A program made the translations under genes and the position numbers. Source: Candidatus Altiarchaeota archaeon (GTDB lineage: Archaea > Altiarchaeota > Altiarchaeia > JAFGQM01). Taken from it: a stretch of 52,478 bases of DNA. Under the pieces are notes generated by a model. It did not search any database. It was not told the DNA's origin and saw only the letters and a list, made by a program, of their open reading frames with translations. The stretch lies in contig JBFYKJ010000056.1 in the NCBI GenBank assembly GCA_041306005.1, forward strand, positions 1-52,478, given 5' to 3'. The number at the start of each line of letters is the position of its first letter. Positions within the stretch are counted from its first letter, which is position 1. Below are positions 5,598-52,185 of the stretch, piece after piece.

Positions 5598-5927
5598 ATG
5601 ATAAACCTCCTTGCAGTCATAATCGGGCTCTTCATACTGGTTGCTATAGCGCAAAACAAAGACTTTAGGAAGCCGAAGAACGGGGAGACTTATGCATTCC
5701 TGTTGATCCTTGTCCTCATACTGGTTTTAGTGGGCCTGGGTGCCCTGCTCCCGCTGTTCGGCGCGATGGCAAGATCACAAAGCATGCTGATGTTCTTCCT
5801 GCTGGGGCTTGGGGCGGTGACGGTTTCAACGTCGGGACAGGCCAAGACATTCTCAAGGGTAGCCTTTGTAGCCGTATTGGCGTTCATAATAATGAGCGTG
5901 CTCGTGCCGGGCCTGGGGCATTACTGA
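5598..5927 (+). CDS. Small integral membrane protein, paralog 3 of 3
   Basis: 109-aa hydrophobic ORF with the same TM/loop layout (TSGQAKTFSRVAF before the last TM). Confidence 0.6.
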   Translation: MINLLAVIIGLFILVAIAQNKDFRKPKNGETYAFLLILVLILVLVGLGALLPLFGAMARSQSMLMFFLLGLGAVTVSTSGQAKTFSRVAFVAVLAFIIMSVLVPGLGHY

Positions 5928-22641: not shown

Positions 22642-25600
22642 CTACATCACGCCCATGCACGCCTCGTCCCAGGTGCATTTCTCGGTGTGGAGTTCGAAGT
22701 GGTCTTTGCAGTTGCCCTGCAAGAAAGGCTTCCCGCTCAGTTCGCACACCACACTGCTGCAAACATCGTATTTCCATCGGCAGTAGTTGCAGTGGTGCTT
22801 ATCGCCGTCGGAGTCACACTCCCCGCCGGTGCCCTTGCCCACAGAGAACCATCCCTCTACGCAAACATCGTATTTACCGCAACTGCGGTCCACGCCCAGC
22901 GGGCCGGTGTTCCCGGCCGCCAGCTTCCAGATGAAGCCGCCCCCGGGTTCCCCGGGGTACCCGGCCCCCTGGTGGTAGTTGAACAAACAGGTCCACTCCT
23001 CGGTGGGGCACGCCTTTATCATGCCCCAGTCCTCGTCCCCGTCGCACATGGCGTACAGCTCGCTGGCGTTGTACCAGCCGTATTCAAGCTCCGACGCCGA
23101 TGTGTCGGGCCCTTCAGAGCTAGACCCGCCGGTGCCCTTGCCGCGCTCCTCCGCCGTGCCGTAGAATGCCCGCTCCCCTATGCCCCGGCAGTAGAGGAAA
23201 TCGTCGGTGCCGACGAGCCCGTCCTCGTCGTACACCCTGTCGCACGGGAAATTCTCATCGCAGGTGCAGTCCTCATCTTTCTCCCCGTTGCAGTTGTTGT
23301 CCAGGCCGTCGTGGCATATCTCCAGCCCGTAGCGGCTTAAGTTCTGCATCTCCACATAGCAATACGGGCAGAACTGGGCTATGCCCCCCTCGTTGTCTTT
23401 CGCCAGGGCGTCTATGCAAAGGTAGTCGTCCTCGGTCAGCGCGCCGTCCTGCGTCACGTCGGCGCATTCTAAGACCGCATCCTGCTCAACTCTATCGTTC
23501 AGTATCCAGCCCTCTATCAGCACGTCACTCGCGGTGATGGCGCCGTCCTGCGTCAGGTCGCCGGGCGTGCCGTTGCAGCCGAATCCGTAGACTACGAGGC
23601 ACGCAACCGGTATCGCCGAGCTGCCGGCGATGGCCTGCAGGCACTGCAAATCGGCCGAATCCAGCGCCCCGCTCCCGTCAAAGTCCGTCACGTTGAGCAA
23701 AGCCGGGTGCGGGTCAACGCCGAATCCGGCCGCGCCCACGATTCTCCCCATGACGGCGACGTCTGTCTGGCCTATGCCTTCGTCGTCGTCCAGGTCACCG
23801 GGCTCGCCCAGCGAGATGTTGAAGCAAAAGCCGCCGTTCATCCGCCGGGAGCAGTCCGTCGCCCCCGTGTCCCCAAGCCACTTGGTGGCCACTACGTTCA
23901 CCAGGCAGGCCTCGTCGTCAATATCGACGTCCCCGTCGTTGTCCATGTCGCCGCAGCCCGCATACTCGTTCCGCTCGACCTGCGACGGCACCTTCTTGAA
24001 GAAATCGCCGAAAAGGCTTATGTCATAAGACGCGGCGACGCAGTCATCGTTCCAGTCCCCGCGGCCGGCGTCCGGTTCCAAACAGTGCATTATGTCCTGG
24101 CCGCCGCTAAGGGTCATGCCGCTCCTTATGCAGGATATTATCTCGGCCTCGGCATACGTCTTCTTGCCACGGTAGTCATACACGCACTGCCTGGCCATCG
24201 GCCGGTCCTCGCAATCCCCAACCTCGCATTCAGATGCCCTTGCCTTTGACGTGTCGACGACGAATATCTCCAGCTCCGCGAGCCCGGACGCCCCGAGCAG
24301 GAGCCCTATCTTGTATACGCCCTCGTGGGGCGGGGCGAACAGCGCGACCGTGTATGTCCGCAGGCGCTGATCCCATGCGAGCGCAGACGTCTGCCCGTAC
24401 AAGACCGCCTTTATATTGGCAAGGCCCTCCACGTCCTTCTCGCCCTGCTTGACCCTCACATTCACGGTGAACGTCTCCTTGGGCTCCAGTATCTTCGGGC
24501 TCGCGCTCTGCTCGGAGGTGACGCCCGGGCGCGACAGCTCGGTGTCAAAGGAGATGGTGAAATTCTGCTCGTATATGACGCCCCCCTCTATCCTCTTGAG
24601 GTATATCTCCGCCCGGTGGCCGCCCGGGTAGGGGGTGTTCACGATGACCGTATAGTTCCCGCCTGAACCTGTGAGCTTGGGCCGTTCCGGCAGCCAGATC
24701 CCGCCATCAAGATAGTAAACCCCGACGTCGCTGGCGGTCGGCGAGTCCAGCGGCGTGCCGTTGAAGAGGATGCTCATGCCTATCTCGATGGGCGGCGTTT
24801 CGTCCATTATCGCATAGGGGGTGAGCTCGAAGTAGCTGTTGCTCACGGGCATGACGTTAACCCCCACTACTTTCATGCCCTTCCTGCCGTCATATAGCGC
24901 CAAGACCGCCAGGTCGTAGGTGCCGGGCGCATCGGGCGCTGCGCACGATGCCTTCCATACGCCCCCCGAGATCGCCGCCCCGCACGGCTGACCCGCCAGC
25001 TCGAAGCTGACGTTGGACTGCTGCGTCACGTCGGTCTGCCCGTAGAGGATCCTTGAGACGCTCGCCGCGAAGGGCCTCCCGGCGGCGGCCGGGTTCGGGA
25101 ACGTCAGCGCGCCGAATGTGAAGTTGTATTCCGGCGGCTCGGGAGGCTGCAGCGTGATTGTTACGGACTTGTTCTCGCCCGGGCCCGCGCTGTACTGCTT
25201 GGACCTGTAGTTTGAATACGCCTCCAGGTTCGATACGGTGAAATAGAAGGGCTTTGACGCCCCGACCGGCACGAACTCGGTGTAGCCGGAGGGTGCCGGG
25301 AGGAGCGCGCCCCCATACCCCGAGCCGTATACCTTAGTGCCGTTGGCCGTCCAAAGCTCCACCGTGGCGTTGGCGGTCAGAATCCTGCCGGCCTTGTCCA
25401 ACACCCTTGCCCTCGCGTTGCCAATCTGCGCGCCGCAAGTGACTTTTAGGTTTAGCGTGTTGGGCCCCGCATCCAGGGCAATGCTTGCACTGGCGCCCAC
25501 ACAGCCCGTTTCGAGCGCTGAGGCGAAAACGGTCGCGCCGGCCGAGAGCTGGAACTCGGCGCATCCGACCGAAAGCGGCTTTTGCCCCAGCTGCTCGCCG

Positions 25601-26478
25601 ATAAGGGAGTGCACCCTGGCCGAGCCGTTGACGGGCTTGCCGCCCTGGTCCCGGACGCACACGCTCAGCACTGCAGGCTCCGGCGCCGAAGCGCGCATCT
25701 GTACTAGTAGTTCCCTTTCCTCGCCAAAACCCAGCATGGTCGGGCTCGCCCTGCCGTCGTACTGCCCATAGCCCGCCGCATCGGCGATGACCGCATACCA
25801 GTTGCCCGAATCAAGGGAGAACGAGCCCATTCCCGCTATCGGCTTGGCGGCGGCTATCGTGTGCGCATTGCCGTTGGGTATCACGACGGTGACGTTTGCC
25901 CTGATGAAAGACCCGGCTTCATCCCTGACTGTGAGCCTCAGGGTGCCCTTGGGGGTCTGCGGCTTGTCGAAGAAATCGGCCGGCAGGCTCACCGGGATCG
26001 TCACGGTGCCCGCGTCAAGGGGGTACGGGTCCGATACTGCCGTCTTCCCGTTCAACGGGTTCCTGACGGCGGCGGTCACGCTGTGGCCGGATATGCCGCC
26101 GAAGGTGAACTCGCTCTTCTTTCCCTCAGAAGAGCATATCTGCCCGCCGTCCGCATCGTTGAGGCTGACAAATAGCGAAGCTGGGACCTGGCCGGCTATT
26201 TTCACCACAACGGTCTTTAGATTTTCCGAAGGGGGGCAATCCGCCAGGCACGACAACGAGGTCTCGGGGGCATCGCATGCGCCGTCGCCGCACAGCGGTT
26301 CGGCCTCAGATGCCGCCGGGCCGCTTGGCCAAAGAAGGATGACCGATATTATTAACAGCGCGAGTATGCCCAATGGAAACAATATCGCGGGTATGCGGTG
26401 CTCGTCAAAAAAGCCGTCAAGGCGGGCGGCTTCCAGGGCGCGCCATGAAAAGTCGTCCAGCTTCCCGAATGGGGGCAT
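22642..26478 (-). CDS. Giant membrane-anchored, Cys-rich surface protein with three dockerin-like modules (paralog A)
   Basis: 1278 aa. N-terminal cytoplasmic motif LDDFSWRALEAARLDGFFDEHRIP, followed by one TM. CGDGACD...CLADC module at 26236-26292. A long beta-rich region of about 650 aa. Six DxDxDG-type Ca-loop segments at 23398-24063. MopE-like ICHDGLDNNCNGEKDEDC near 23255-23325. Cys-rich C-terminus. Confidence 0.85.
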   Translation of the reverse strand: MPPFGKLDDFSWRALEAARLDGFFDEHRIPAILFPLGILALLIISVILLWPSGPAASEAEPLCGDGACDAPETSLSCLADCPPSENLKTVVVKIAGQVPASLFVSLNDADGGQICSSEGKKSEFTFGGISGHSVTAAVRNPLNGKTAVSDPYPLDAGTVTIPVSLPADFFDKPQTPKGTLRLTVRDEAGSFIRANVTVVIPNGNAHTIAAAKPIAGMGSFSLDSGNWYAVIADAAGYGQYDGRASPTMLGFGEERELLVQMRASAPEPAVLSVCVRDQGGKPVNGSARVHSLIGEQLGQKPLSVGCAEFQLSAGATVFASALETGCVGASASIALDAGPNTLNLKVTCGAQIGNARARVLDKAGRILTANATVELWTANGTKVYGSGYGGALLPAPSGYTEFVPVGASKPFYFTVSNLEAYSNYRSKQYSAGPGENKSVTITLQPPEPPEYNFTFGALTFPNPAAAGRPFAASVSRILYGQTDVTQQSNVSFELAGQPCGAAISGGVWKASCAAPDAPGTYDLAVLALYDGRKGMKVVGVNVMPVSNSYFELTPYAIMDETPPIEIGMSILFNGTPLDSPTASDVGVYYLDGGIWLPERPKLTGSGGNYTVIVNTPYPGGHRAEIYLKRIEGGVIYEQNFTISFDTELSRPGVTSEQSASPKILEPKETFTVNVRVKQGEKDVEGLANIKAVLYGQTSALAWDQRLRTYTVALFAPPHEGVYKIGLLLGASGLAELEIFVVDTSKARASECEVGDCEDRPMARQCVYDYRGKKTYAEAEIISCIRSGMTLSGGQDIMHCLEPDAGRGDWNDDCVAASYDISLFGDFFKKVPSQVERNEYAGCGDMDNDGDVDIDDEACLVNVVATKWLGDTGATDCSRRMNGGFCFNISLGEPGDLDDDEGIGQTDVAVMGRIVGAAGFGVDPHPALLNVTDFDGSGALDSADLQCLQAIAGSSAIPVACLVVYGFGCNGTPGDLTQDGAITASDVLIEGWILNDRVEQDAVLECADVTQDGALTEDDYLCIDALAKDNEGGIAQFCPYCYVEMQNLSRYGLEICHDGLDNNCNGEKDEDCTCDENFPCDRVYDEDGLVGTDDFLYCRGIGERAFYGTAEERGKGTGGSSSEGPDTSASELEYGWYNASELYAMCDGDEDWGMIKACPTEEWTCLFNYHQGAGYPGEPGGGFIWKLAAGNTGPLGVDRSCGKYDVCVEGWFSVGKGTGGECDSDGDKHHCNYCRWKYDVCSSVVCELSGKPFLQGNCKDHFELHTEKCTWDEACMGVM

Positions 26479-26546: not shown

Positions 26547-29500
26547 TCATCCCGACGCGTGGTCCGAGTACCTGGTCCTGCCGGTGAGTATGTGCCATAC
26601 TACACGGTAGTCGTCCTCGTACCTCGTCCCGTAGTCCATGTGTATCAACGGCCTCTGCGACTGGTCGGCGCCCGAAAACTCGACTATGAGGTAGCAAGTG
26701 CCGTAGTGGCCGCCCTTCATGGAAAAGCCGTATGAATGGGTGTTTTGTATGGAGCCGCCCCTGTCATCCCCCTCCTCGATGACGTACAGGCCGTCGGGGT
26801 CCTTCGCGAGATAGACGCGCGAGATGCCTTTTGCATCGTACCCCTCGGGTATGTAGACCGCAAGCAGGTGGGTGCTGGCAGACTCCGGCTTCCAGAGGAG
26901 GTACAGCTCGTAGCGGTTGTCAAAAGTCCCTTCCCCGGACTCCAGGCCGCCAAGGCTGCCCATGCACAGGCCCTCGGCCGGGCAGACCTCGGATTCGCCG
27001 CCCTCGCCATCGTCGCAGCCGCCCATGCCCCCGCCGCTCGGCCCGCACTCTTCCTTCTGGCATACGTCGAATTCGAAGCGGCAGTAGCGGCATTTTTTCT
27101 CATAGATGAGCTTGCAGTTCGAGCCTGAAGATGTGCCCACCGAGTTCCACCCGGTATGGCAGTCCGGCGCGTCGTGGCAGTCGTATGTCGCGCCCAGGGG
27201 GCCTATGTTCCCCTCCGCGCTCATCCACCTAAAGCCCTTCATGTCGTTTATCTCCGATGCGCTTGTCGTCCCGCCGCCCTCTTCTCCGCCGCCCTCGTTG
27301 TTCTCTATCCAGTCTTCCGTATTCCCCGAATTGTGCGAGAAGCCCGGCAGGAAGTTGAAGAGGCACGTCCATTCCCCGCCCCCGCAGTACATTATGTTGC
27401 CCCAGCCCTCCTCGCTGCACATGCCGTCGACGTCGTCTATCGGGTTCCAGTCAAAGCCGCCCTCGGGCTCATCATCCTCGTCTTCCTCTTCGTCCTCGGT
27501 CGCCCCCGCCGCCCACTGGCTGAAGTCCCGCTCCCCGAAAGCCGTGCATACGGCGAAATCGTTCGTCTCCGGCAGGCCGTCGATGTCGTAGAGTTTTGAG
27601 CACGACTGCCCGTCGTCGCAGGTGCAGTTCTCGTCCGTATATCCGTTGCAGTCGTTGTCAAGGCCGTCGTGGCATATCTCCTGCCCGTAGCGGCCGAGGG
27701 CCTGCAGGTCCCGCGCGCAGATGCCGCAGAACGGGGAAGTGAGCGTTATATCGCCATTTATGGTACCGTCCATGCAGAAGTAGTCCTCATCGTCGACGAC
27801 CGCATCATTGTTCATGTCGGCGCACTTGAACACGGTCGTTGAATCGACCCTGTGGTTGACTATCCAGCCTTCTATCATGAAGTCCGTGTCGTCTATCTCC
27901 CAGTCCCGCGTGAGGTCGCCGGGGGCGTATGTCCCGTTCGGGTAATCTGGCCCCGGGCCGGGCTTTGTCGCGCAGCCGAAGTCGTAGATGGCAAGGCATG
28001 AAATCGCTATGTTCTTCCCATTCACTATGCTGTCAAGGCAGTCGTAATCCTTTATATCCACATTGCCGCTCATGTCAAAGTCGGTGATGTTGAGCAGGAA
28101 CTCGTCGGGCGTGACGCCGTAGCCTGCAATGCGGACGACGTCCCCCATTATCCCGAGGTCCGCGGCGTCCATGTTGCCGCTGCCGTCAAGGTCCCCGGGC
28201 TCGCCCACGCTTATGTTGAAGCAGAAGCCGCCCCGCATCGAGCTTGCGCAGTCCTCGTCGCCGTAGTCGCCGAACCACTTGGTGGAGAGGATGTTGGTTA
28301 TGCAGTCATAGTCATCCTCGTCGGCGTCACCGTCGTTGTCCATGTCCCCGCAGTAGCGGTACTCGTTGCGCTCCTCCTGCGAGGGTATCTTGGTGAAGAA
28401 GTCGTTCATCAGGCCGAGATCCGAAGAGGTCAGCATGCAGTCCGTGTCCCAGTCGCCGCGGCGGGCGGAGGCCGACAAACAGTGGGTCACGTCCTGCGAG
28501 CGTATCATCAGGCCAGTGCGTATGCAGGTCACCACGTCGCTCTCGGAGTAGGACTTCTTCGAGTCGTACTCCGCGACGCACTCCCTCACCATCGGCCGGT
28601 CGACGCACTTCTTTATGTCGCAGTCGTCCGCGCGGCTCTTGCCGGTGTCGACGACGAATATCTCAGTGTAAGCTATCCGCTCCTGCTCTATGTAGAACTC
28701 CAGCTTGTAGATGCTCTCGTATTCGGGGGCCTTAAGCGAGACCGCGTAAGCCTTCTGCGCCGAGTCCCACGGCATCGATTTCGTGGTTTCGGCAAGCCCT
28801 ACCTTTAGGTTGGCAAGGCCCTCGATAGCCTTCCCGCCCTGGGTTATCCTCAGGTAGGCGGTGAAACTCTCTTCCGGCTCGAGTATGCGCGGGCTCGCGC
28901 TCACCTCGGTCGATACGGCAACCTGCGACGGCTGGGAGTCGAAGGTGATGGTGAAATTCTGCTCATACACAGCATCGCCCACCGTCTTCATCAGGTATAT
29001 CTCCGCCCGGTGGTCGCCGGGGAAAGGCGTGTTTGCGGCGATCGTGTACAATCCGTCGGCGCCCTTGAGGGCGGGCTTGTCCAAAGCCCATATCTTGCCC
29101 GGCACGTAGTATATGCCGACGGAGCTCGCATCGGGCGCGGCCAGCGGGGTCCCGTTGAAGGTTATGTCCATCTCGATGTCTATCGGCGGCTGGACGTCGA
29201 GGATAGCGTGCGGGACCAGCTCAAAGTAGCTGGACGCGCCAACCGCGAATACCTTGACCTGCTGGGTCTTGCTGCCCGCCCTGCCGCTGTAAAGCGCGTT
29301 GACCGCGAGATCGTAGTCCCCGGCCAAATCGGGGGCCTGGCACTCGGCGGTCCACACCGAGCCCTTAGACACTGCGCATGGCTGGGCGGCGAACTCCACC
29401 GTGACGTTGGCTAAGGAAGTCACGTCCGTCTGGCCGTAGAGGACGCGCGATACGGTCACCTTAAATGTGTCAAGGGCGACTACGGGGCTTGGATAAGCGA

Positions 29501-30890
29501 TGCCGCTGAACGAGAAGTTGTACACCGGGGGTTCAGGTATGGGGAGGTCGAGGGTGACCGTCTTGTTGGCGCCGGGATTTACGCCGTACTTCGACGAGGT
29601 GAATGCCGAGTAGCCGGCGACCCCGGTCACGGTGAAGTAGACCTTCTTTGACGAGTCGGCGGCGACGTACTCGGTGTACCCGGTTGGCGCCGCCAGGAGC
29701 GAGCCGCCAAAGCCCGATCCGCTTATCTTCCGGCCGTCCGACGAGAAAGCCGTGACAGTGGCCTGGCGGGTCACGTCGGTCTCGTTGGCCGTGACCTTCA
29801 CCCTCACCTGCCCGACCTGCGGGCCGCACGTCAAATTCAGGCTGACAGCATTCGAGCCGGGGGCGAGCGCCACCTCTTTCGCGGCGCTTGAGCATCCGGG
29901 TGAGTCAAAAGACACCTCCACCCTCGCACCCGACAGTAGGCTGAACTGCGCGCAGCCGGATATCAGGGGCGCCGTGCCGAGCGAGTCGCCGCTCAGCGAC
30001 GATACGCCGACGCTGCCCTCGAGCGCGCTGCCCGCGGAGTATGCGCATGCCCTGAGCGAGGCCTGAACGGGCGCGGGCACCAGCGGGTCCATCTGCGCAA
30101 TGATCTCCCTCTGCGCGCCCTGCTCGACGTTTATCGGGCTCTTCCTGCTGTCATACTGGGCATAGCCCTCGGCGTCGACGATTATCGCATACCACTTGCC
30201 GGCGTCGACTGTGAAGAAATCACTGCCCGGCACCGACTTCGTGCTGACTATCGTGTGGGATGAGCCGCTTGGTATCACAAGGGTGACCTTTCCGGTGACC
30301 GAAAAGCCGGATTCTGCATCCTTGAGCGTCACGCGGACAACGCCCTTGGGGATCGCTGTCTGCTCGAAGAATCCCGACGGCATTGCGACAGTTATCTCCG
30401 TTTCCTTGCCTTCAAGCGATATCAGGTCCGACTGCGCAGCCTTGCTGTTCTTCGGGTTTGACACCACCGCGCGGGCGCTGTCGCCGGACAGGCCCGAAAA
30501 TGTGAACGAGCTCTTCTTCCCGCTGGAAGCGGCAAGCCGGACACCCTCGGCATCCTCGATGCGGACGTCGATGCTGGCATCCACCTGCCCGAATATCAAG
30601 ACCTTTACTGTCTTGAGGTCGCCCTCCTTCTTCGCGCAGTCCTCGGGGCAGGATATCAAATCCTCGTCCCTCGCGGGCTCGCACGCCCCGTCGCCGCAGA
30701 ATATCTCGGCCTGGGGGGCGCCCGGCGGCCCGGAGGGCTGGGATATGAGCAGGAGCACCGCTACAAGCAGGATTATTATGGCGAGGGGCAGCACCAAGGC
30801 GGGTATCCTATACTGCTCAAACACGCCGTCGAGGCGCGTCTTCTCGACAAGCGTCCACGAGAAGCCGTCAAGCGACTCCTTAAGAGGCAT
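26547..30890 (-). CDS. Giant membrane-anchored, Cys-rich surface protein with three dockerin-like modules (paralog B, extended C-terminus)
   Basis: Collinear with paralog A: MPLKESLDGFSWTLVEKTRLDGVFEQYRIP plus a TM, CGDGACE...CPEDC at 30636-30698, dockerin-like segments at 27753-28460, and ICHDGLDNDCNGYTDENC. It additionally has an acidic tract (EDEEEDEDDE) and an extra C-terminal domain of about 150 aa. ATG 30890 is chosen by homology to paralog A; the track start is 30941. Confidence 0.85.
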   Translation of the reverse strand: MPLKESLDGFSWTLVEKTRLDGVFEQYRIPALVLPLAIIILLVAVLLLISQPSGPPGAPQAEIFCGDGACEPARDEDLISCPEDCAKKEGDLKTVKVLIFGQVDASIDVRIEDAEGVRLAASSGKKSSFTFSGLSGDSARAVVSNPKNSKAAQSDLISLEGKETEITVAMPSGFFEQTAIPKGVVRVTLKDAESGFSVTGKVTLVIPSGSSHTIVSTKSVPGSDFFTVDAGKWYAIIVDAEGYAQYDSRKSPINVEQGAQREIIAQMDPLVPAPVQASLRACAYSAGSALEGSVGVSSLSGDSLGTAPLISGCAQFSLLSGARVEVSFDSPGCSSAAKEVALAPGSNAVSLNLTCGPQVGQVRVKVTANETDVTRQATVTAFSSDGRKISGSGFGGSLLAAPTGYTEYVAADSSKKVYFTVTGVAGYSAFTSSKYGVNPGANKTVTLDLPIPEPPVYNFSFSGIAYPSPVVALDTFKVTVSRVLYGQTDVTSLANVTVEFAAQPCAVSKGSVWTAECQAPDLAGDYDLAVNALYSGRAGSKTQQVKVFAVGASSYFELVPHAILDVQPPIDIEMDITFNGTPLAAPDASSVGIYYVPGKIWALDKPALKGADGLYTIAANTPFPGDHRAEIYLMKTVGDAVYEQNFTITFDSQPSQVAVSTEVSASPRILEPEESFTAYLRITQGGKAIEGLANLKVGLAETTKSMPWDSAQKAYAVSLKAPEYESIYKLEFYIEQERIAYTEIFVVDTGKSRADDCDIKKCVDRPMVRECVAEYDSKKSYSESDVVTCIRTGLMIRSQDVTHCLSASARRGDWDTDCMLTSSDLGLMNDFFTKIPSQEERNEYRYCGDMDNDGDADEDDYDCITNILSTKWFGDYGDEDCASSMRGGFCFNISVGEPGDLDGSGNMDAADLGIMGDVVRIAGYGVTPDEFLLNITDFDMSGNVDIKDYDCLDSIVNGKNIAISCLAIYDFGCATKPGPGPDYPNGTYAPGDLTRDWEIDDTDFMIEGWIVNHRVDSTTVFKCADMNNDAVVDDEDYFCMDGTINGDITLTSPFCGICARDLQALGRYGQEICHDGLDNDCNGYTDENCTCDDGQSCSKLYDIDGLPETNDFAVCTAFGERDFSQWAAGATEDEEEDEDDEPEGGFDWNPIDDVDGMCSEEGWGNIMYCGGGEWTCLFNFLPGFSHNSGNTEDWIENNEGGGEEGGGTTSASEINDMKGFRWMSAEGNIGPLGATYDCHDAPDCHTGWNSVGTSSGSNCKLIYEKKCRYCRFEFDVCQKEECGPSGGGMGGCDDGEGGESEVCPAEGLCMGSLGGLESGEGTFDNRYELYLLWKPESASTHLLAVYIPEGYDAKGISRVYLAKDPDGLYVIEEGDDRGGSIQNTHSYGFSMKGGHYGTCYLIVEFSGADQSQRPLIHMDYGTRYEDDYRVVWHILTGRTRYSDHASG

Positions 30891-30936
30891 AAGGAGATTA
30901 ATGCCGGGGGGAATAAAAGCCTGTATATCATAAATG

Positions 30937-30977
30937 CCCATATGGAAGAAAATCCCATATGGAAGAAAAGCCCATAT
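30937..30977. repeat. 17-bp tandem repeat, about 2.4 copies (CCCATATGGAAGAAAAK)
   Basis: Units at 30937-30953 and 30954-30970, with a partial unit at 30971-30977. Located 47-87 nt upstream of the preferred start of giant paralog B. Confidence 0.85.
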
Positions 30978-31070: not shown

Positions 31071-31955
31071 TCACACCGCCCACATCAGTATGGCGGACCA
31101 GAAGGGGGATATCGCTATCGCGAGCGGGAACGCGGGGGCGAACCTTATGCCCCACTTTATCCGGATCTTCTTTGGCAGCTGCTTGCGCGAGGCGCGTATG
31201 GCCTTTATGGCCTCTTTGGTCAGACCGTCCATGTCCCTGCTGCTGGCCAGCTTCTTGCCGCGGATGACGAGGTCTTCGGCCACAAGGTCGCCCTCGCGCA
31301 GCTCTTTAACGGTGACTTCCCTTTGCATGGCTATCTCCTCTACGCTCCTCGTGAATGCCAGGAGGGGGTAATATATCGCCGGCAGGGCAAGTGCCAGCAT
31401 CATCACATAGCTGTGGGGCTTTGCCATTATGAACAGCGAAACGGCTATGACGACGCCCAGTACGGCTATGAACCAGTTCTTCCGGACCCTGCCGCCGAAG
31501 AGGGAGAATACCTTCATATGCGTTACGGCAAGTATGAATGCGTAGGTCAGGGAGTATGGGATCGCGATCACCGAGAGGGCGACGAAGAACCCGAAGAACG
31601 CTGGGAATATCGCCGCTGAGCCCATTATGGACGGGGCCGCAATCCCGCCGAGCGCGGCGCCTATGCCCGCTATCAGCTTGGCATCGCCCCCGCCCCAGCC
31701 GCCGGTGTAGAAGAGGAGCGCGCCAAATGCGAAGAATATTGCTGCCACTGCCGCGCCGTCAAGGAAATAAACATAATCCCCCAGCATCACCGAGAACGCC
31801 GCCCGCATAGCGAGCGCGGCTGCCACAAGCCCTATGCTGAACTTGTCCGGTATCTCGCCGGTCTTCAGGTCGAAATATGACGCCACGACCGAGAAGCCCA
31901 TGGCTGTGGAGAGCATGAACAGGTTCGCAGTCGGGATGTCGATCATCGGGGCCAT
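31071..31955 (-). CDS. A24-family prepilin/preflagellin-type aspartic peptidase
   Basis: Polytopic membrane protein with the two catalytic Asp motifs YFDLKTGEIPD and GGWGGGDAKLIAGIG. It also has a soluble insert and C-terminal TM helices, as in archaeal FlaK/PibD-type enzymes. Confidence 0.8.
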   Translation of the reverse strand: MAPMIDIPTANLFMLSTAMGFSVVASYFDLKTGEIPDKFSIGLVAAALAMRAAFSVMLGDYVYFLDGAAVAAIFFAFGALLFYTGGWGGGDAKLIAGIGAALGGIAAPSIMGSAAIFPAFFGFFVALSVIAIPYSLTYAFILAVTHMKVFSLFGGRVRKNWFIAVLGVVIAVSLFIMAKPHSYVMMLALALPAIYYPLLAFTRSVEEIAMQREVTVKELREGDLVAEDLVIRGKKLASSRDMDGLTKEAIKAIRASRKQLPKKIRIKWGIRFAPAFPLAIAISPFWSAILMWAV

Positions 31956-44801: not shown

Positions 44802-47800
44802 TCACTTCTCCCTCGAAAGCTGCACCAGCTTCTTCAGCAGCTCCTCGTCCTCCTTGTTCATGAACTTCTTGCCTTTCTTTAGGATGGTCTCGTATTCGTT
44901 GAACGTTATATGGGTGAAGAGGATGTCCCCCTCCACGATGTTCCTCCCGACGAGCGGCCCGTCGATGGCGACAGCCACCTCCATCCCCTTCTTCGCCTCG
45001 TCCAGCTTGTCGGTCTTGTCTTGTATTGATTTTACCGTCCCGACGCGCGTGCCGTCCTCCTTCATCAGCGGGTATCCCTCGCGTATCCTGCCCTTTATCA
45101 CCGCGACGCCTATTATCGCGGGGTCTGAGCGCCTGAACGTGCACCCCTCGAGGAACTTGATCTCCGCCGGGAATGGTATCGTGTCGAATATCGCCATCTC
45201 CTGCTGGCGCTTGACGTCCTTGACCCACTCCCCATAATCCTCTATTATCTTGAAGATTATCTTGTTTGCGAGGAGCTTGACCTTGGCCGTTTCGGCGTAT
45301 TGGAGCAAATCCTCGGCTACCGGCGCGTTGAAAGCGATGACTATCCCGTATTCGGGGTTCTGCTTCCTCATGGATTCCGCCTCCATGATGTCCGTCTTTG
45401 ACACCGCCCCGATATCCGCCTTCCTGACCGGTATCCCGAGCTTCTTGAACATGCCGAGGATGGCTTCCAAACTTCCGAGGCTGTCCGACCGGACGACAAG
45501 CCCGACGTTTTCGTGGTCGAAGCGGACGGACTCGAGCTCCTTTCTTATTATGGCCTTCAGCTCCTCGGCTTTCTTCGGGTCGGCGCCCTCGACAACGTAG
45601 ACCTGCCCGCCGGGGAGGGCGTTCTCGACGCCGGGGCCCACCAGTTTCAAACCGCTCGCCGCGGAGATTGACGCTATGTTGTCGAACTTGTCCCTAGGGT
45701 CGCGCATCTCGTCCAGGGGCTTGGGTTTAAGTAGAGCCTTGACCTTCGTCTCTACGGGCCCGTCCTTGCCGCTCATGACGACAGTGTCACCCCGCTTGAT
45801 GGTCCCGTCATATAATATTAAATCAAGGCTCGTGCCCAGTCCCTTCTCCTCCTTGACTTCCAGGATGCTCGCCTTGCCCGGGCCCTTCACCTCTATCTGC
45901 AGGTTCTTTTCAAGGTATTTCTGGGAAAGCCCCGTTAAGAGCATCATCGCCTCGGCGATGCCCTCGCCCGTTTTTGCCGACACGGGCACTATGCAGACCT
46001 GCTTTGTGAAGTCCCCGACACGGTCGAACCTCTCGGAGCTGATGTTCATCTCGCTTAGGCGACCGACCAGTTCATACAGTTTTTGCTCGACCTCCTTTCT
46101 CACGAAGTCCTGCTGCTGCTTGACTGCCTTAATGAAGCAGTACTCGCCGGTGTTGTGCCACCCGGAAAGAAGGTCTATCTTGTTAGCCACGACGATGAAC
46201 GGGGTCTTGTAGTTCTTGAGTATCTCAAGGGCTTCTATAGTCTGGGGCATGAAGCCCTCGCGGATGTCGACTACGAGGACGGCGAGGTCTGCGATGCTGC
46301 CGCCCCTCTTCCTTAAATTAGTAAACGCCTCGTGTCCCGGGGTGTCGATGAATAGGAGTCCGGGGATAGTCACGTCCACATTCATCGCCTCAAGCTGTTT
46401 CCCGCACAGGTTTTTTATTACGTCGATGGGGACTTCTGTCGCGCCGATGTGCTGGGTTATCCCGCCCGCCTCCCTCGCGGCGACAGAGGACTCCCTGATC
46501 TTGTCGAGAAACGAGGTGTTGTGTATTATGCACCGGTCGGCAATGAAGTTATGGGTCTCCGGTTGGGTGAAATCATAGACGTTGCATTCGCCCCTTATCT
46601 CCCGCGCCCCGGCGACCCGCGTGCAGACGAAGTCCGAGTTGACGATCCCGTGGAGCCTCCCGGCGTGGTTGAAGACAAGGACAGGGTATCGGGCCGCGCT
46701 CTCAAGCCCGGGCAGGAGCGACAGACCCTTCGCGGTCAGCATGAAGCGGCTTTCCGCCTTGGCGAGCAGCCCTTCGCTTGACAGGAAGGTCAGGTGGTTC
46801 AAAAGCCTCTTGTGCGGCACCGGAAGCCTCTTGTAAAGGGCGGAATATGTGAGCGGGCGCTCCAGCGCCTTCAGCGCCGAGAGCCTCTCGCGCATGGTGC
46901 CCTTATACCCTTTGCCCAGCACCCGCTTCTGCAGGCTCTTTATGAAAGACCTGAGGTACGCGCGTGAGACGAAGGGGTATTTCTCATAAGCCTTCTGGTA
47001 GGGTATCTCCGTCTCCATCCCCGAAAGGCCGAATGAGACGCGAAGCTCCCTGACTTTGGAGCCGGGTATCGGGAGGAGGTCAAAGATCCTGCTCGTTGTC
47101 GCCTTCTTGTGCATCGAATCCAGGCACGCCTGCTTCCTCGCAAGCCTGAAGCCTATGGACTCGCTGAAGTTGCAAAGGTACTCGCTTCCCGAGATTTTCA
47201 GCCGATAGCCCCCCCTCGAGCTGCTCACGACCGACGGGCAGCCGAACCGCTGCAGGGCTATTGCAAGCTTTCTTATCATGTCCCCGCTCATAGAGAGGAC
47301 CTCAACACCCGTTGATTTGGACACATAGCCGTCGGTGTCGAAATAGCCTGAGATGAATGCGGAGAGAAACGGGTTTGGCGACCTGAGGACGAGGTCCGGG
47401 ATAGTCATCGTGCGGCTCTTGTCGCGGCGCGGGTAGGCGAACACCTGGCAGAGGAGTTCGCCGAATGTCTTGTTGCCGGTGTTGGCAACGCTGTTAGTCG
47501 TCCGCTGGGGGGTAATGCGGATGCCCGTGCCAAAAGCGCTCATCATCGCCCGCCCGTACTCGGCGATAAGGTCCCCGTCGGTGTTTGAGAGGATTGCATT
47601 CCCCCGCGTACCGTCGCCCCATAGGGCGCCCATGGCATAAAAGGCGTCCTTGAACTGCTCTTCGGTCTTGGGGAGGCTGATCAGCGAGCCCCTGTGGCTG
47701 GCGCGCTGTTTTGTGGTGGAGTACTTGATGGCTGTGATAGAGTCATAGAGTTTTTGCGGGGGGATTTTGCCCCTCGCAAGGGCGACCGCGTCAGCGGCCC

Positions 47801-48401
47801 TAAACCTACCATGCATGGTGCAGTCATGCACCGAGCGGGTGATGAGCGCCCGCTTCTTTTCCTTGGCAAGCGCCCCGAGGCGCGCTGCCATTTCCGGCTC
47901 GAAGAAGGCTATGAAATCCCGGGACTCTGCGAGCTTTAGCAGGAAAAGCTCCTTGAAGCGCGCCAGGCTGATTTGCGGGGGCTGGACCCTGGCAGGGACT
48001 AAGATGAAGTCCCCGGTCTTGAGAGAATCGGCGCGCACCTTTGTTATCATCCCGTCCCCGCCCATCGAGAAGAACGGGTGCTCGGGGGTCACTTTTACCC
48101 TGGAGCCGTGCCTTGTCGCGACCTCGACGACCTTATCGGCCTTCAGCCTCCAGATGTGGCTCGCCTTCCTGGCCGATATGGCGCCCGTCTCGTCAAGCGA
48201 GAGGAGTTTTATATCAGCGCCCGAGAGGTCCAGGATGTCGCCGCGCCCGTCGGGGACGCGGGGCATCTTGGTGGAGAGCTCGTCGTAGATGCCCTTTATC
48301 GGCCTGATGCTCCCGTTTGCCAGGGCTATCTCAGTGTCGCCGGTGACGCACTTCCCGTGGTCAACGTGCCCGAGCACGGAAATGATAGGCTGACGGATCA
48401 T
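44802..48401 (-). CDS. infB: Translation initiation factor aIF5B (IF2-like GTPase) interrupted by an intein in the P-loop
   Basis: Exteins: MIRQPIISVLGHVDHGK | TSFLDKIRESSVAAREAGGITQHIGATEVP, DTPGHEAFTNLRKRGG, ANKIDL. The mature length would be 588 aa. Confidence 0.93.
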   Translation of the reverse strand: MIRQPIISVLGHVDHGKCVTGDTEIALANGSIRPIKGIYDELSTKMPRVPDGRGDILDLSGADIKLLSLDETGAISARKASHIWRLKADKVVEVATRHGSRVKVTPEHPFFSMGGDGMITKVRADSLKTGDFILVPARVQPPQISLARFKELFLLKLAESRDFIAFFEPEMAARLGALAKEKKRALITRSVHDCTMHGRFRAADAVALARGKIPPQKLYDSITAIKYSTTKQRASHRGSLISLPKTEEQFKDAFYAMGALWGDGTRGNAILSNTDGDLIAEYGRAMMSAFGTGIRITPQRTTNSVANTGNKTFGELLCQVFAYPRRDKSRTMTIPDLVLRSPNPFLSAFISGYFDTDGYVSKSTGVEVLSMSGDMIRKLAIALQRFGCPSVVSSSRGGYRLKISGSEYLCNFSESIGFRLARKQACLDSMHKKATTSRIFDLLPIPGSKVRELRVSFGLSGMETEIPYQKAYEKYPFVSRAYLRSFIKSLQKRVLGKGYKGTMRERLSALKALERPLTYSALYKRLPVPHKRLLNHLTFLSSEGLLAKAESRFMLTAKGLSLLPGLESAARYPVLVFNHAGRLHGIVNSDFVCTRVAGAREIRGECNVYDFTQPETHNFIADRCIIHNTSFLDKIRESSVAAREAGGITQHIGATEVPIDVIKNLCGKQLEAMNVDVTIPGLLFIDTPGHEAFTNLRKRGGSIADLAVLVVDIREGFMPQTIEALEILKNYKTPFIVVANKIDLLSGWHNTGEYCFIKAVKQQQDFVRKEVEQKLYELVGRLSEMNISSERFDRVGDFTKQVCIVPVSAKTGEGIAEAMMLLTGLSQKYLEKNLQIEVKGPGKASILEVKEEKGLGTSLDLILYDGTIKRGDTVVMSGKDGPVETKVKALLKPKPLDEMRDPRDKFDNIASISAASGLKLVGPGVENALPGGQVYVVEGADPKKAEELKAIIRKELESVRFDHENVGLVVRSDSLGSLEAILGMFKKLGIPVRKADIGAVSKTDIMEAESMRKQNPEYGIVIAFNAPVAEDLLQYAETAKVKLLANKIIFKIIEDYGEWVKDVKRQQEMAIFDTIPFPAEIKFLEGCTFRRSDPAIIGVAVIKGRIREGYPLMKEDGTRVGTVKSIQDKTDKLDEAKKGMEVAVAIDGPLVGRNIVEGDILFTHITFNEYETILKKGKKFMNKEDEELLKKLVQLSREK
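46518..48350 (-). mobile_element. 611-aa intein with LAGLIDADG homing-endonuclease domain inserted after GHVDHGK
   Basis: Block A CVTGDTEIAL (Cys1 codon 48348-48350). Block B VKVTPEHPFF. LAGLIDADG motifs FYAMGALWGDGT and FISGYFDTDGYV. Blocks F/G NVYDFTQPETHNFIADRCIIHN (Asn codon 46518-46520), followed by the +1 Thr. Confidence 0.9.
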
Positions 48402-48497: not shown

Positions 48498-50288
48498 TCA
48501 CGCGCAGTCCTGCGGGCACACGCCCATGTTCCGCTCCACCTGGTCGCAGGTCCCGTCGCCGCAAAGTCCGGTCTGCGGTCCGGGGTTCCCGGTCTGCGTG
48601 CCGCAGTCCTGCGGGCAGACGCGCATGTTCCGCTCTATCTCGTCGCACGTCCCGTCGCCGCAAAGTCCGGTCTGCGGTCCGGTTCCAGTCCCCGGCCCGC
48701 CGTCCTGCTGCGAAACTGGCGTCGGCGAGAAACCGGACGCCGCGCCGGATGCCTCTTCGATGAAAACCGGGCTGTCGCCCAGCTGCAGTGTCAGCGTGCC
48801 CGAAGCAACGTTCACGACACCAGATTTGAAAGCCGTTGAATAAGATGCGACGTCTTTGCCATTCTGCCGGTTCGGCACGGCCTCGGCCACCTCGGCTTTG
48901 CTTATCCCGGCTATCGGCACAGTGGCGGTCTTCGTCTTTGCGCCCGGCTCGTTCCAATAATCCCACCAGACTACCCACACGGGCTTGCCGCCCTTTGTGA
49001 ACTTGAACGCGTATATGTTGTCCTCGCCGGCAATGACTGTCTCTATGCCCCCCCAGTCGGAGCCCTCCAGAGTCTCGGTCATCCGTTTATAGGTGTAATA
49101 TGCCAGCTTCTTCGTCCCGCGGCTGGGCTCCCCCGAGCCCTGGCCGTCATATATCAGGCCCATGTATGCGAAAAAATTATTGTTGTCCTGGTAGCCCTCC
49201 ACCACGCTCAGCCACATCGCCCTCTTCACGCCCCTAGACAGCAGATAGACATAGCGCTTGAGCAGGTCCAGGGCGTGCTGCCGCTCGCTCTGCGCCCCAA
49301 ACACGGCGTCGGGCGGGTCGCCGGACCAGGTGCCCATCTCGGTCACCCATATGGGGACATCGCCATACCCGGTCTCGTCGAGGCGTTTCCTTACGTGGCC
49401 TATTATGTCAATGCCGTCTGCGTCCCTAAGGAGATAATCGCCCGATGCGTCCCCGTAGAAATGCAGGTCGACGACGTCGATATAACTGCCGCCGAGCTCC
49501 TGCAATACAGGGAGGTAATACTTGTCGAAGTTATTGGTGTATTGCGGGCTGGCCGACGAGCCCGCCAGCAGGACGCGGGTGCCCGGATCGGCCTCCTTTG
49601 CAGCCTCATAAGTGATTCTCTGCACGCCGGCGAAACCCTCGATGCCCCTGCCGTTCATCATGGCTTCCAGGTCAATCTCATTTCCCACCTGCCAATATCG
49701 TATCGGGCTCTTAAGCCCGGGCATGTCGTCCACGCCGTCGCCGTCGTAGCGCTCGACAGCGGCCTTGACGAACGCCGCGTATTTCCGTTCGTCCACGGGC
49801 TGCCAGGTATCGCCAACGTAATATGACGGCCTCGACGGCCTGACCTGCGAGCCCGATTGGGCTGGCCCGGACGGCGCACCAGACGGTGCTGGCCCGATTG
49901 GCGACGGCGCTATGTTGGTCACCAGAAGCATGCCCTCCGGCACCCGCTGCCATTGTGCGTCATATTCGCTGAAATCGTATTCGTCCTTGCTCAAATCGCT
50001 CTGGACGAAGTTCCAGAACGTGTAAAGCCCTTCCCTCATCCAACGGGCCCCGATCTCCTTTAAGGTTTCTTCGGCACCGCGGACTAAGTGAAAGCCGAAC
50101 GGGGAGTCGGCATATTGGCCGGCGGCAGTGCATGCGCCGCAGTCTAAGGGGCATGATGAGCAAGTCTCGCCGCTGCACGCGCCGTCTCCGCAGCTTGCAG
50201 GCGCCGTCGTTGGAGGTTGGGACATCAGCAAGTATGCAACTATCGCGATGGACACTGCACCAACAATCGCTATGGCTCGTTTGTCCAC
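48498..50288 (-). CDS. Secreted/anchored clan-GH-A-like glycoside hydrolase with an N-terminal and two C-terminal CGDGxC modules
   Basis: N-terminal hydrophobic anchor or signal. CGDGACSGETCSSCPLDCGAC at 50130-50192. TIM-barrel-like core with WQVGNEID (putative acid/base NE) and IWVTEMG (putative nucleophile) about 115 aa apart. A beta-sandwich-like region. Then 2x LCGDGTCD(E/Q)(I/V)ERNM(R/G)VCPQDC at 48501-48665. Confidence 0.6.
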   Translation of the reverse strand: MDKRAIAIVGAVSIAIVAYLLMSQPPTTAPASCGDGACSGETCSSCPLDCGACTAAGQYADSPFGFHLVRGAEETLKEIGARWMREGLYTFWNFVQSDLSKDEYDFSEYDAQWQRVPEGMLLVTNIAPSPIGPAPSGAPSGPAQSGSQVRPSRPSYYVGDTWQPVDERKYAAFVKAAVERYDGDGVDDMPGLKSPIRYWQVGNEIDLEAMMNGRGIEGFAGVQRITYEAAKEADPGTRVLLAGSSASPQYTNNFDKYYLPVLQELGGSYIDVVDLHFYGDASGDYLLRDADGIDIIGHVRKRLDETGYGDVPIWVTEMGTWSGDPPDAVFGAQSERQHALDLLKRYVYLLSRGVKRAMWLSVVEGYQDNNNFFAYMGLIYDGQGSGEPSRGTKKLAYYTYKRMTETLEGSDWGGIETVIAGEDNIYAFKFTKGGKPVWVVWWDYWNEPGAKTKTATVPIAGISKAEVAEAVPNRQNGKDVASYSTAFKSGVVNVASGTLTLQLGDSPVFIEEASGAASGFSPTPVSQQDGGPGTGTGPQTGLCGDGTCDEIERNMRVCPQDCGTQTGNPGPQTGLCGDGTCDQVERNMGVCPQDCA

Positions 50289-50340
50289 GTCAGTCTAAGG
50301 GCGGATGCCTTGGGGAGATTAACCGCCCTACCAAGAAAAA

Positions 50341-52185
50341 TCAGGGGCAGTCCTGCGGGCAGACGCCTATGTTCCGCTCCACCTCGTCGCACGTCCCATC
50401 CCCGCACTTCCCAGTTCCCGGTCCGTTCCCGGTCCCCGAACAATCGGCGGGGCAGAGCTGCGGGTTTTGCCTCTCGGTATCATCGCATATCCCGTCGCCG
50501 CACTTTTCCGTCACCGGCCCGTTCCCGGTCCCCGAACAATCGGCGGGGCAGAGCGACGGGTTCGCAGACTCTATCTCGTCGCACGTCCCGTCGCCGCACT
50601 TTCCGATATCGGGTTGCCCGTTATCATCTGGTGCCCCGCCCCCGGCGCCAGAAATCGGTGAATACGCATACTGCGGCAGGCTCTGGCAAGAGCCGCACTC
50701 CTCGATGTACACGGGCCCGGCGCCTAGCTCCAGCCGAAGGATGCCCTGCGAATCGGAAGAAGCCTTGAACTCGATGCCTTCCATCGTCGTCACCTTGAAG
50801 GTCCCTGTCCCGACCTGCAGGCTCGTCGTCTGCGAAGCGGGCGCCTGCGCGCGGCCGAAAGTCGAGTGGCCCTCGAACCGCACGGGCACGAATGCGACGT
50901 AGATGCTCTTGCCGCCGCCCTCGAACTTCTCGGCCCAATAACCTGCGCCGTTCACCTCGCCCGCGACGTGCTGGACGTGGTTCGGGTACTGCAGCATTAT
51001 CCTGCGCATGGTCTTGAAAGCGTAATACCCCGCACGGTACTCGTTCGGGCTGCCCAATACCGCCATCCCAAAGTCCTCGCCCTGCGCCATTTTGGACGTC
51101 ACGCCCATCGCCACAGCCTGGCAGAACCTGCCTTCGGCCTTGCCCTTGGCGTGCGTCAGAAGATAGCCTTGCGCCAGCTGCGCGGCCGCAAGCTCCTCGC
51201 CAAAGTACTTCGGCCCGTATGCGCACTCGGTATAGACTACAGGGACCTCGGACTTGCCGTGATCCGCCAAGAAGTCATGCAGGTGGTCCTCAAGGTCGTA
51301 CTGCGAGGAGAAGTAGTACTCGCTCGTCTGCGTCCCGCCGGTGTAGGCGTAGTCATGCATGGAGAAACAGTCGATGTTATCCAAATTGTCCAAGTATGGC
51401 CCAAAACGGTCGAATACCTCCTGGGTGTCGTCAGCCATGTTCTTCGTGCCTATCCCGAGCGGCTGGTGGATGCTGGCCGAGCAGACTTTGATGTCCGGGT
51501 CGATGCTCTTTACCCGCTCATAGACCGAGTTGTCGACTTCTGCGAGATACTCCGTAGTGTCGCCCCAGAGGCATGGCGTGACGGGCTCGTTCTCAAGCTC
51601 CACGAAGCTTATTCTCATCTTGCCCTTGTATCTTTTCGTGAAATTGCCGAGGAAGTCCGCCGCGTATGCAGGGTCGCTCGGCGCGGGGTTCGGAGACCCC
51701 ATGAACTTGGTGCACTGGCTGACGTCCACCGCCGGCGTCCTCTTTACCGCCCAATCCGGGTTCCCGGCCTGCATGAGTATGATCATAGTCTTGAGGCCGT
51801 ACCTGTCTATCATGTCAGCTATGCTGTCGAACTTGGACCAGTCGTATTGGCCCTTCGCGGGCTCGATGGACTTCCACTGAGGGTTTATCTTGACGTAATT
51901 CACGCCAAGTTCCTGCTTTGCTATCCTGAATATCTCGTCTATCTTGTCGTCCGGGAGTGAGAATGCGTCGTAGCCTATGTAAAGGGAGTAGAGCATGTCG
52001 ACTTTGGGTTCTGGGGATGTGCCGCACGAACCACAGTCGGATTGGCATGAAGTGCAGGTCTCGCCGCTGGAGCAGGAACCATCCCCACACCGAGCAGGCG
52101 GCTGCGGCGGCGCGGAAGGCTGCATGAGCATACATGCGGCTGCGATTATCGCTATCGCAAGCAATGTGAGCATTCGTTTGTCCAC
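50341..52185 (-). CDS. Secreted/anchored clan-GH-A-like glycoside hydrolase with an N-terminal and three C-terminal CGDGxC modules
   Basis: Same layout as the preceding hydrolase. CGDGSCSSGETCTSCQSDCGSC at 52024-52089. FVELENEP and VVYTECAYG motifs. Three KCGDG(T/I)CD...CP(A/Q)DC modules at 50344-50601, separated by SGTGNGP linkers. Confidence 0.6.
   Translation of the reverse strand: MDKRMLTLLAIAIIAAACMLMQPSAPPQPPARCGDGSCSSGETCTSCQSDCGSCGTSPEPKVDMLYSLYIGYDAFSLPDDKIDEIFRIAKQELGVNYVKINPQWKSIEPAKGQYDWSKFDSIADMIDRYGLKTMIILMQAGNPDWAVKRTPAVDVSQCTKFMGSPNPAPSDPAYAADFLGNFTKRYKGKMRISFVELENEPVTPCLWGDTTEYLAEVDNSVYERVKSIDPDIKVCSASIHQPLGIGTKNMADDTQEVFDRFGPYLDNLDNIDCFSMHDYAYTGGTQTSEYYFSSQYDLEDHLHDFLADHGKSEVPVVYTECAYGPKYFGEELAAAQLAQGYLLTHAKGKAEGRFCQAVAMGVTSKMAQGEDFGMAVLGSPNEYRAGYYAFKTMRRIMLQYPNHVQHVAGEVNGAGYWAEKFEGGGKSIYVAFVPVRFEGHSTFGRAQAPASQTTSLQVGTGTFKVTTMEGIEFKASSDSQGILRLELGAGPVYIEECGSCQSLPQYAYSPISGAGGGAPDDNGQPDIGKCGDGTCDEIESANPSLCPADCSGTGNGPVTEKCGDGICDDTERQNPQLCPADCSGTGNGPGTGKCGDGTCDEVERNIGVCPQDCP

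Follow-up and report, generated by a model that had tools for sequence, protein, structure and literature searches.

A short four-cysteine module of anchored proteins in an Altiarchaeota archaeon and its likeness to the calcium-binding segment of RET

Nine module copies in four anchored proteins

The sequence analysed here, called the window throughout, is a contig of 52,478 nucleotides from a Candidatus Altiarchaeota archaeon (GenBank assembly GCA_041306005.1, contig JBFYKJ010000056.1). We describe a cysteine-rich module of about 20 residues that occurs in two hydrolases and two giant proteins encoded in this window, and that a first-pass annotation, made from the sequence alone, had proposed as a new surface-display handle. 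The four genes all lie on the minus strand; where copies or residues are labelled, GH1 and GH2 are shorthand for hydrolase 1 and hydrolase 2.

22642-26478, minus strand: giant A, 1278 amino acids; transmembrane (TM) anchor at residues 29-50, one module, immunoglobulin (Ig)-like or unassigned repeats, dockerin-type repeats, Cys-rich C-terminal third
26547-30941, minus strand: giant B, 1464 amino acids; TM anchor, one module, architecture of giant A
48498-50288, minus strand: hydrolase 1, 596 amino acids from a GTG start; anchor, six-Cys module, GH-A-like catalytic domain, Gly/Pro/Thr linkers, two modules
50341-52185, minus strand: hydrolase 2, 614 amino acids from a GTG start; anchor, six-Cys module, GH42/GH5-like domain, three modules

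The motif CG(D)GxC-x8-10-C-x2-DC was run as a regular expression on all six frames of the window. It returned exactly nine matches, all on the minus strand within the four open reading frames (ORFs) given above and none in any other frame; their coordinates agree with those of the first-pass annotation. They are listed below with their scores under a hidden Markov model (HMM) that was built independently from 1003 copies, all from other organisms, or under the Pfam profile RET_CRD, each copy being scanned singly.

26236-26292, minus strand: giant A module, CGDGACDAPETSLSCLADC; placed 12 residues beyond the TM anchor, of the 8-residue loop class
30636-30698, minus strand: giant B module, CGDGACEPARDEDLISCPEDC; 10-residue loop; HMM 23.8 bits
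50130-50192, minus strand: hydrolase 1 N-terminal six-Cys variant, CGDGACSGETCSSCPLDCGAC; HMM 21.7 bits, no Pfam match
52024-52089, minus strand: hydrolase 2 N-terminal six-Cys variant, CGDGSCSSGETCTSCQSDCGSC; HMM 20.3 bits, no Pfam match
48603-48662, minus strand: hydrolase 1 C-terminal copy 1, CGDGTCDEIERNMRVCPQDC; RET_CRD 30.7 bits, HMM 27.8 bits
48504-48563, minus strand: hydrolase 1 C-terminal copy 2, CGDGTCDQVERNMGVCPQDC; RET_CRD 27.4 bits, HMM 26.3 bits
50536-50598, minus strand: hydrolase 2 C-terminal copy 1, CGDGTCDEIESANPSLCPADC; RET_CRD 32.2 bits
50440-50502, minus strand: hydrolase 2 C-terminal copy 2, CGDGICDDTERQNPQLCPADC; RET_CRD 28.5 bits
50347-50406, minus strand: hydrolase 2 C-terminal copy 3, CGDGTCDEVERNIGVCPQDC; RET_CRD 26.8 bits

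An HMM of the copies had been proposed as a check in the first-pass annotation, and the family HMM does separate the nine copies, at 20.3-29.0 bits, from the rest of the window, where the next best score was 4.7 bits. The copy of giant A was the best scorer (29.0 bits); scanned alone, it had no Pfam match. When the residues of the six-frame translation were shuffled, full-motif matches appeared in 0 of 300 trials and cores of the form CGDG.C at a rate of 0.02 per shuffle, while the analytic expectation from composition was about 1e-5 copies. The score gap and the shuffles together rule out chance or low complexity as the source of the copies.

In the alignment of the nine copies eight columns are invariant (C, G, D, G, C, C, D, C), and none of the copies contains an aromatic residue. 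Both hydrolase N-terminal copies are of a six-Cys variant, CGDGxCxxGETCxSCxxDCGxC. The last copy of each hydrolase, namely copy 2 of hydrolase 1 and copy 3 of hydrolase 2, stops one residue before the protein end.

In all four carriers one hydrophobic stretch, at the N-terminus, precedes the first module copy by 10-15 residues, and this topology was seen in no other large ORF of the window. The two hydrolases are paralogs with a common architecture (E 1e-40, 27% identical over their whole length) and so are the giants (46% identity); the nine copies therefore represent three independent placements, not nine.

Relationship to the calcium-binding segment of RET

The module had at first not been recognised as a named domain. 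We found that all five C-terminal copies (26.8-32.2 bits) score above the gathering score of Pfam PF22540 (RET_CRD), which is 26 bits, as do both hydrolases taken as whole proteins (31.4 and 42 bits), and that PF22540 is already on the public record of the window's own protein. The first-pass annotation had also said that a known annotated domain with defined function would undo its proposal. This is partly what we see, because the public Pfam annotation of the window protein lists PF22540. NCBIfam has no model covering the module, and in literature searches with the motif, with PF22540 and with the RET cysteine-rich domain (CRD) or its calmodulin-like motif combined with prokaryotes we found no description of a prokaryotic stand-alone module. 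The module is thus already catalogued, if little studied, and is not an anchor newly found in, and peculiar to, one organism.

The likeness to RET was also found by comparison with proteins of known structure. A phmmer search of PDB sequences with the hydrolase 2 array returned zebrafish RET (7aml) at E 2.7e-4, and on this alignment 14 of 21 residues, counted by hand, are identical between C-terminal copy 1 of hydrolase 2 and zebrafish RET 539-559. With a family profile of 141 copies, mostly from other organisms, RET was the only significant match in the whole PDB (7aml at E 1.8e-6; human 6q2j/6q2n and 6gl7 at E 1.6e-5).

The human RET segment reads C565-P-D567-G568-H-C570-D571-V-V-E574-...-C581-P-Q-D584-C585 and is known as the calmodulin-like motif (CaLM). 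It shares with the module the pattern C-x-D-G-x-C-D-x-x-E-x6-C-P-x-D-C, with its three side-chain Ca2+ ligands, Gly and four Cys, and an extracellular, membrane-proximal location. When the hydrolase 2 copies were aligned to it without gaps, D3, G4, D7, E10 and D20 fell on Asp567, Gly568, Asp571, Glu574 and Asp584, respectively; in the giant B copy and in the six-Cys copies the position of the Glu is offset by 1-2 relative to RET. In the cryo-EM work of Li et al. (2019), strong density occupies a pocket made by Asp567, Glu574, Asp584 and backbone carbonyls (PMC6760901). A study of 2022 reported that the substitutions D567N/Y, G568S, D571N, E574D and D584N destabilise Ca2+ binding and distort the CRD, and that these mutants form illegitimate intermolecular disulfides; C565, C570 and C585 are described there as buried and engaged in intradomain disulfides, C581 was analysed alongside them, and mutation of the Ca2+ site activates RET in cancer (PMC9574375).

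The positions equivalent to the RET Ca2+ ligands and cysteines are invariant, or close to it, in the window copies. We also examined their conservation in 227 copies from 44 loci of a GTDB scan described below. Gly2 was conserved at 96-100%, and Asp or Asn at position 3, Gly4 and the Asp before the last Cys at 100%; the Glu was conserved at 100% within the 8-residue loop class. Outside the Ca2+-ligand and Cys positions the sequence is variable across the family. The module is acidic, and aromatic residues make up only about 1.5% of it (F 1.2%, W 0.1%, Y 0.2%).

The six-Cys variant is present in other organisms too, and its two extra cysteines co-occur (58/65 versus 312/949, Fisher p 9e-20). 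Such co-occurrence indicates a third disulfide and suggests that the canonical four cysteines pair among themselves. The first-pass annotation had left open a knot held by two disulfides or by a metal. By homology to the RET CaLM it is probably both, the metal being Ca2+ bound by Asp and Glu and not by Cys.

For the hydrolase 2 C-terminus given as a single sequence, AlphaFold2 returned a predicted local distance difference test score (pLDDT) of 41. With an alignment of 137 rows, C-terminal copy 3 of hydrolase 2 reached a pLDDT of about 84-87 across the 21-residue module, with a short helix over EVERNI and a disordered Gly/Pro/Thr linker before it. This model predicts a confident compact unit next to a disordered linker.

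On these grounds we consider the sequence homology of the module to the RET CaLM segment well supported. The setting differs: in RET the segment is single-copy and lies inside a domain of about 100-120 residues and seven disulfides in a metazoan receptor kinase, whereas the module stands alone with about 20 residues, often in tandem, between low-complexity linkers on prokaryotic enzymes.

Distribution of the family and proposed role of the module

GTDB was scanned with a narrow pattern, each species being represented by one genome, and 44 loci were confirmed. The bacterial ones belong to Chloroflexota/Anaerolineae, Omnitrophota, Patescibacteria (Parcu-, Pacei-, Peri- and Saccharibacteria), Elusimicrobia, Myxococcota and Pseudomonadota, and the archaeal ones to Woesearchaeota, Iainarchaeota, Thaumarchaeota, Halobacteria and Methanofastidiosum. 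Overall, the module is found in at least 12 bacterial and archaeal phyla. An earlier word-indexed homolog search with the 99-residue array as query had given 94 candidates and 2 matches, too few to describe a family. A profile search of 1.84 billion representatives returned at least 623 proteins at E<=1e-3 and at least 102 at E<=1e-10; these counts are minimum values, since proteins with only one 21-residue copy stay below significance in such a search. Pfam RET_CRD matched 19/44 and 37/51 carriers.

All four carriers in the window have an N-terminal hydrophobic stretch; a hydrophobic or lipobox-like stretch was found in 40 of the 44 genome-locus carriers, and a hydrophobic one in 119 of the 139 best Met-starting matches of the profile search. 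The view that extracytoplasmic proteins carry it as a discrete module, some 20 residues long, is supported, and the two placements first noticed in the window, after the anchor and at the C-terminus, turn out to be general in the family. A copy lies just after the anchor at 19/44 loci, and the last copy ends 12 residues or fewer from the protein end at 13/44. Arrays of at least four copies occur at 14/44 loci, with up to 44 copies in a Myxococcota protein. The partner domains are diverse and include GH42/5/14/39, CotH, several esterase families, FGE-sulfatase, S9/S15 peptidases, LamG and Kazal.

The longest arrays form a group of their own. Some proteins in metagenome-assembled genomes (MAGs) of Myxococcota and Pseudomonadota consist almost wholly of 13-44 tandem module copies (L021 at 1608-5723; L039, L030, L008, L014, L043), and some of them have Somatomedin_B-like or DUF4215 matches together with a conserved Cys-rich tail, ...CCxxxxGxxCxxxxQCF.

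Three homologs of hydrolase 2 (P0004-P0006) lack the module, and all three end where the linker and array of hydrolase 2 begin. In two of them (P0005 and P0006) a Big_2 Ig domain lies between the lipobox and the catalytic domain, at the very site of the six-Cys module in hydrolase 2. The module thus acts like an accessory that can be exchanged, at a site that otherwise holds a classic stalk domain. Big_2, one of the Ig-like stalk domains of lipoproteins, shares this post-anchor position and a presumed role as spacer; its fold is an unrelated beta-sandwich of some 80 residues that lacks both Cys and metal.

The nine copies belong to a widespread family of extracytoplasmic mini-domains of bacteria and archaea. 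We think it probable that these are structural units with one bound Ca2+ and two disulfides, serving as a stalk or end-cap. After export the four canonical cysteines would form two internal disulfides, and the six-Cys variant a third, while Asp3, Gly4, Glu10 and the Asp before the last Cys would make, with backbone carbonyls, a cage for one Ca2+. The outcome would be a very small, rigid and acidic knot between flexible Pro/Gly/Thr linkers, that is, a compact and protease-resistant unit. On enzymes and adhesin-like giants, the copy after the anchor would serve as a stalk or spacer, and C-terminal copies as an end-cap or short array. The module would then be a generic structural unit and not a substrate- or envelope-specific binding handle. 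We infer Ca2+ binding and the disulfides from the conserved ligands and from RET, and the spacer role from position, partner diversity, the lack of a conserved surface and the interchange with Big_2. Both hydrolases and both giants are accordingly exported envelope proteins, with a predicted dependence on Ca2+.

Several points weigh against this reading. The four N-terminal copies are below the RET_CRD threshold (giant B sub-threshold at 16.4 bits, E 0.012; no match for the other three). The alignment to RET_CRD is confined to profile positions 42-72 of 103, and with about 28 of the 103 positions matched, shared ancestry is not separable from convergence on a short Ca2+-binding loop. The complete RET_CRD has been described as a new fold without relatives, with 14 Cys in seven disulfides, three small beta-sheets and two helices in about 100 residues (PMC6760901), whereas the window unit has 19-22 residues and four or six Cys. 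The density in the RET CaLM was assigned as a Ca2+ site only tentatively (PMC6760901), though mutational work supports Ca2+. In the prokaryotic copies, Ca2+ binding and disulfides are carried over by homology, the spacer role is read from position and partner diversity, and extracellular disulfide formation in this archaeon is an assumption. When the 32-residue model was compared with the PDB by Foldseek, nothing matched, which for so small a query is uninformative and is no support either. Finally, the terminal copies of the two hydrolases (50347-50406 and 48504-48563) are identical at 54 of 60 nucleotides by hand count, and four of the six differences are synonymous; at about 90% DNA identity against 27% protein identity of the enzymes, this suggests gene conversion or recent exchange, or else strong constraint, and selection for a specific binding surface could explain it as easily as gene conversion.

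That last observation is also an argument for a rather unlikely alternative, the tethering role suggested in the first-pass annotation, in which the module is a minimal Ca2+-dependent, dockerin-like handle and the hydrolase arrays and the post-anchor copies of the giants bind an envelope partner or each other. Like dockerins and S-layer homology (SLH) domains, the module is found at protein termini on flexible linkers, all four single-anchor exported proteins of the window carry it, and several genomes have multiple carriers (L001/L019, L006/L025, L007/L008, L011/L031). In RET, moreover, the loop of this segment touches the ligand GDNF (zebrafish I546 in the CRD beta1-beta2 loop; PMC8266384). 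Type I dockerins (PF00404) are likewise Ca2+-dependent and terminal, joined by flexible linkers to secreted glycoside hydrolases, but they are built of about 60-70 residues in duplicated 22-residue EF-hand-like segments, have no Cys and bind a defined cohesin partner. Pfam scans of the window proteins revealed no cohesin-like partner, and no other candidate partner was found in the window. Surface positions outside the Ca2+ ligands and Cys are poorly conserved across the family, the 13-44 tandem copies of the Myxococcota proteins look structural, and Big_2 replaces the post-anchor copy in homologs. The module is also shared by diderm, monoderm, CPR (candidate phyla radiation) and archaeal lineages with unrelated envelopes. 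Its spread over so many phyla with differing envelopes, and its fusion to unrelated enzymes, argue against an SLH-type or envelope-specific anchor, and the idea of a common handle peculiar to this organism is not supported. A bolder form of the docking reading is improbable: the unit would plug the hydrolase arrays into an envelope receptor or into the dockerin-bearing giants, whose own copy lies next to the anchor, for a new type of cellulosome-like display, and RET would have inherited or co-opted an ancient prokaryotic docking loop to contact its ligand.

It is also quite unlikely that the module is a miniature carbohydrate- or mineral-binding module that targets enzymes, by analogy to the fungal carbohydrate-binding module CBM1 on its Ser/Thr/Pro linker. 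Its repeated fusion through linkers to glycoside hydrolases fits such a role: about 8 of the 44 genome-locus carriers have a GH1-type catalytic domain (L042, L004, L023, L006, L025, L015, L032, L020), and GH42/5/14/39 matches occur among the partners. An acidic, Ca2+-loaded surface could, in addition, bridge to anionic polymers. Conversely, the aromatic content given above is too low for the aromatic binding face of a CBM1-type Cys-knot module, on which ground we rejected that assignment; esterases, peptidases, CotH, FGE-sulfatase and non-enzymatic giants are fused to the module equally; and a copy following the anchor is badly positioned for substrate targeting.

Least of all do we expect a Cys4 transition-metal centre with Zn or Fe held by the cysteines in place of disulfides: four invariant Cys within about 20 residues, a weak 11-residue sub-threshold match to Zn_ribbon_ACC (E 0.008-0.08) and an anaerobic host in which disulfides might be hard to form would suit it, but the cysteines are spaced Cx4C...Cx3C and do not form pairs of CxxC knuckles, export signals or anchors are present in the carriers, RET is reported to have its homologous cysteines in disulfides and its Ca2+ on Asp/Glu, the invariant Asp, Glu and Gly would be left unexplained, and the extra Cys come in co-occurring pairs as disulfides predict. 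We rejected membership of the zinc-ribbon group for lack of two CxxC knuckles and of a cytoplasmic or nucleic-acid context.

As a structural unit, the module has parallels among small extracellular domains. LDL-receptor class A and calcium-binding EGF domains are small disulfide-stapled extracellular modules that need one Ca2+, held on conserved Asp/Glu, to complete their fold and that act in tandem as rigid spacers or binding units. They differ in having about 40 residues, three disulfides and other Cys spacing, and neither LDL-A nor EGF was matched by Pfam in the window proteins or the isolated copies. A resemblance to the Myxococcus-type repeat (TIGR02232/DUF4215, PF13948) had been suggested at the outset. 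The two share the CG(D/N)G opening, a Glu a few residues on, long arrays in Myxococcota and secretion, and one Myxococcota carrier of the module also matches DUF4215; however, the repeat is a longer unit with another Cys pattern (...GE.CDDGN...), and neither model matched the four proteins or the isolated copies (NCBIfam at E<=1; Pfam at E<=1 and E<=10), so that the resemblance does not amount to membership. A repeat named CysRRep in a 2026 bioRxiv preprint (Cx6-9Cx5-7Cx8-11Cx7-8CC) is a different motif.

If the Ca2+ and disulfide assignments are right, few self-contained protein modules known to us that bind Ca2+ and are stapled by disulfides would be as small as this one, a modular part of secreted enzymes in CPR, DPANN, Omnitrophota, Chloroflexota, Myxococcota and other uncultured lineages. 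The label RET_CRD on prokaryotic proteins is best read as a Ca2+-loop mini-module and not as a receptor domain. The RET CRD, for its part, holds a segment with many prokaryotic sequence relatives, which may offer a simple model for the cancer-linked Ca2+ site. The link from this site to a common microbial mini-module is a modest surprise, not a new kind of system.

Carrier genes and their neighbourhood

Hydrolase 2 has Pfam matches to Glyco_hydro_42 (E 5.8e-12) and Cellulase (E 6.8e-8). The catalytic domain of hydrolase 1 (48666-50129, minus strand) has only a sub-threshold match, Glyco_hydro_cc at E 0.0018, and looks like an uncharacterised family of clan GH-A type. Its homologs, at 26-39% identity, are from Patescibacteria, Omnitrophota, Woesearchaeota, Halobacteria and Proteobacteria; they were all recovered via the module, and their usual order is anchor, module, enzyme. 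The catalytic domains of these homologs typically end in ...PVF(V/I)EE.

The public gene calls for both hydrolases start downstream of ours, giving 513 amino acids for hydrolase 1 (P0028) and 551 for hydrolase 2 (P0003), and omit the anchor and the N-terminal six-Cys module (50041-50288 and 51997-52185, minus strand). We favour the GTG starts at 50288 and 52185, because homologs align upstream of the public starts and the N-termini share an MDKR-hydrophobic-CGDG arrangement. If these starts hold, two gene starts are to be corrected in the annotation of the window.

In the giants the post-anchor copy is kept in the homologs P0008 (38%) and P0009 (27%) and in a third paralog at locus L045 of MAG GCA_964391885.1, the nearest relative found. 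The ORF of giant B reaches 17 codons further upstream than the Met aligned to the start of giant A (MPLKESLDGFSW vs MPPFGKLDDFSW), and its start is probably M18 at 30890. Giant A has dockerin-type repeats (PF00404, E 1.2e-7) and a sub-threshold MopE-like CHDGxDNxCxG (PF11617) at residues 972-1021 and 1052-1069 (23416-23565 and 23272-23325, minus strand). The Dockerin_1 matches, at residues 972-1021 of giant A and 1007-1054 of giant B, do not fall on the Cys modules. The C-terminal third of the giants is very Cys-rich. Immediately ahead of the hydrophobic stretch lies a motif conserved between the giants and their homologs, ...DG(F/V)F(D/E)x(H/Y)(R/N)IP(A/P)..., which might be a processing site.

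The gene content of the window is archaeal, with aIF5B carrying an intein, aIF2-gamma, S6e, Elp3, FEN1, HerA, PdxS and trp genes; no tRNA or rRNA was found in the window. The aIF5B/IF-2 gene (44802-48401, minus strand) is split by the intein, which has a LAGLIDADG homing endonuclease (Pfam Intein_splicing E 1.4e-20, LAGLIDADG_3 E 5.8e-13). Directly upstream of giant B is a gene of the Peptidase_A24, or prepilin-peptidase, type (31071-31955, minus strand), with a counterpart at 5033-5896 of L045. The order A24 peptidase, giant paralogs, dCMP deaminase and Elp3 is kept in MAG GCA_964391885.1.

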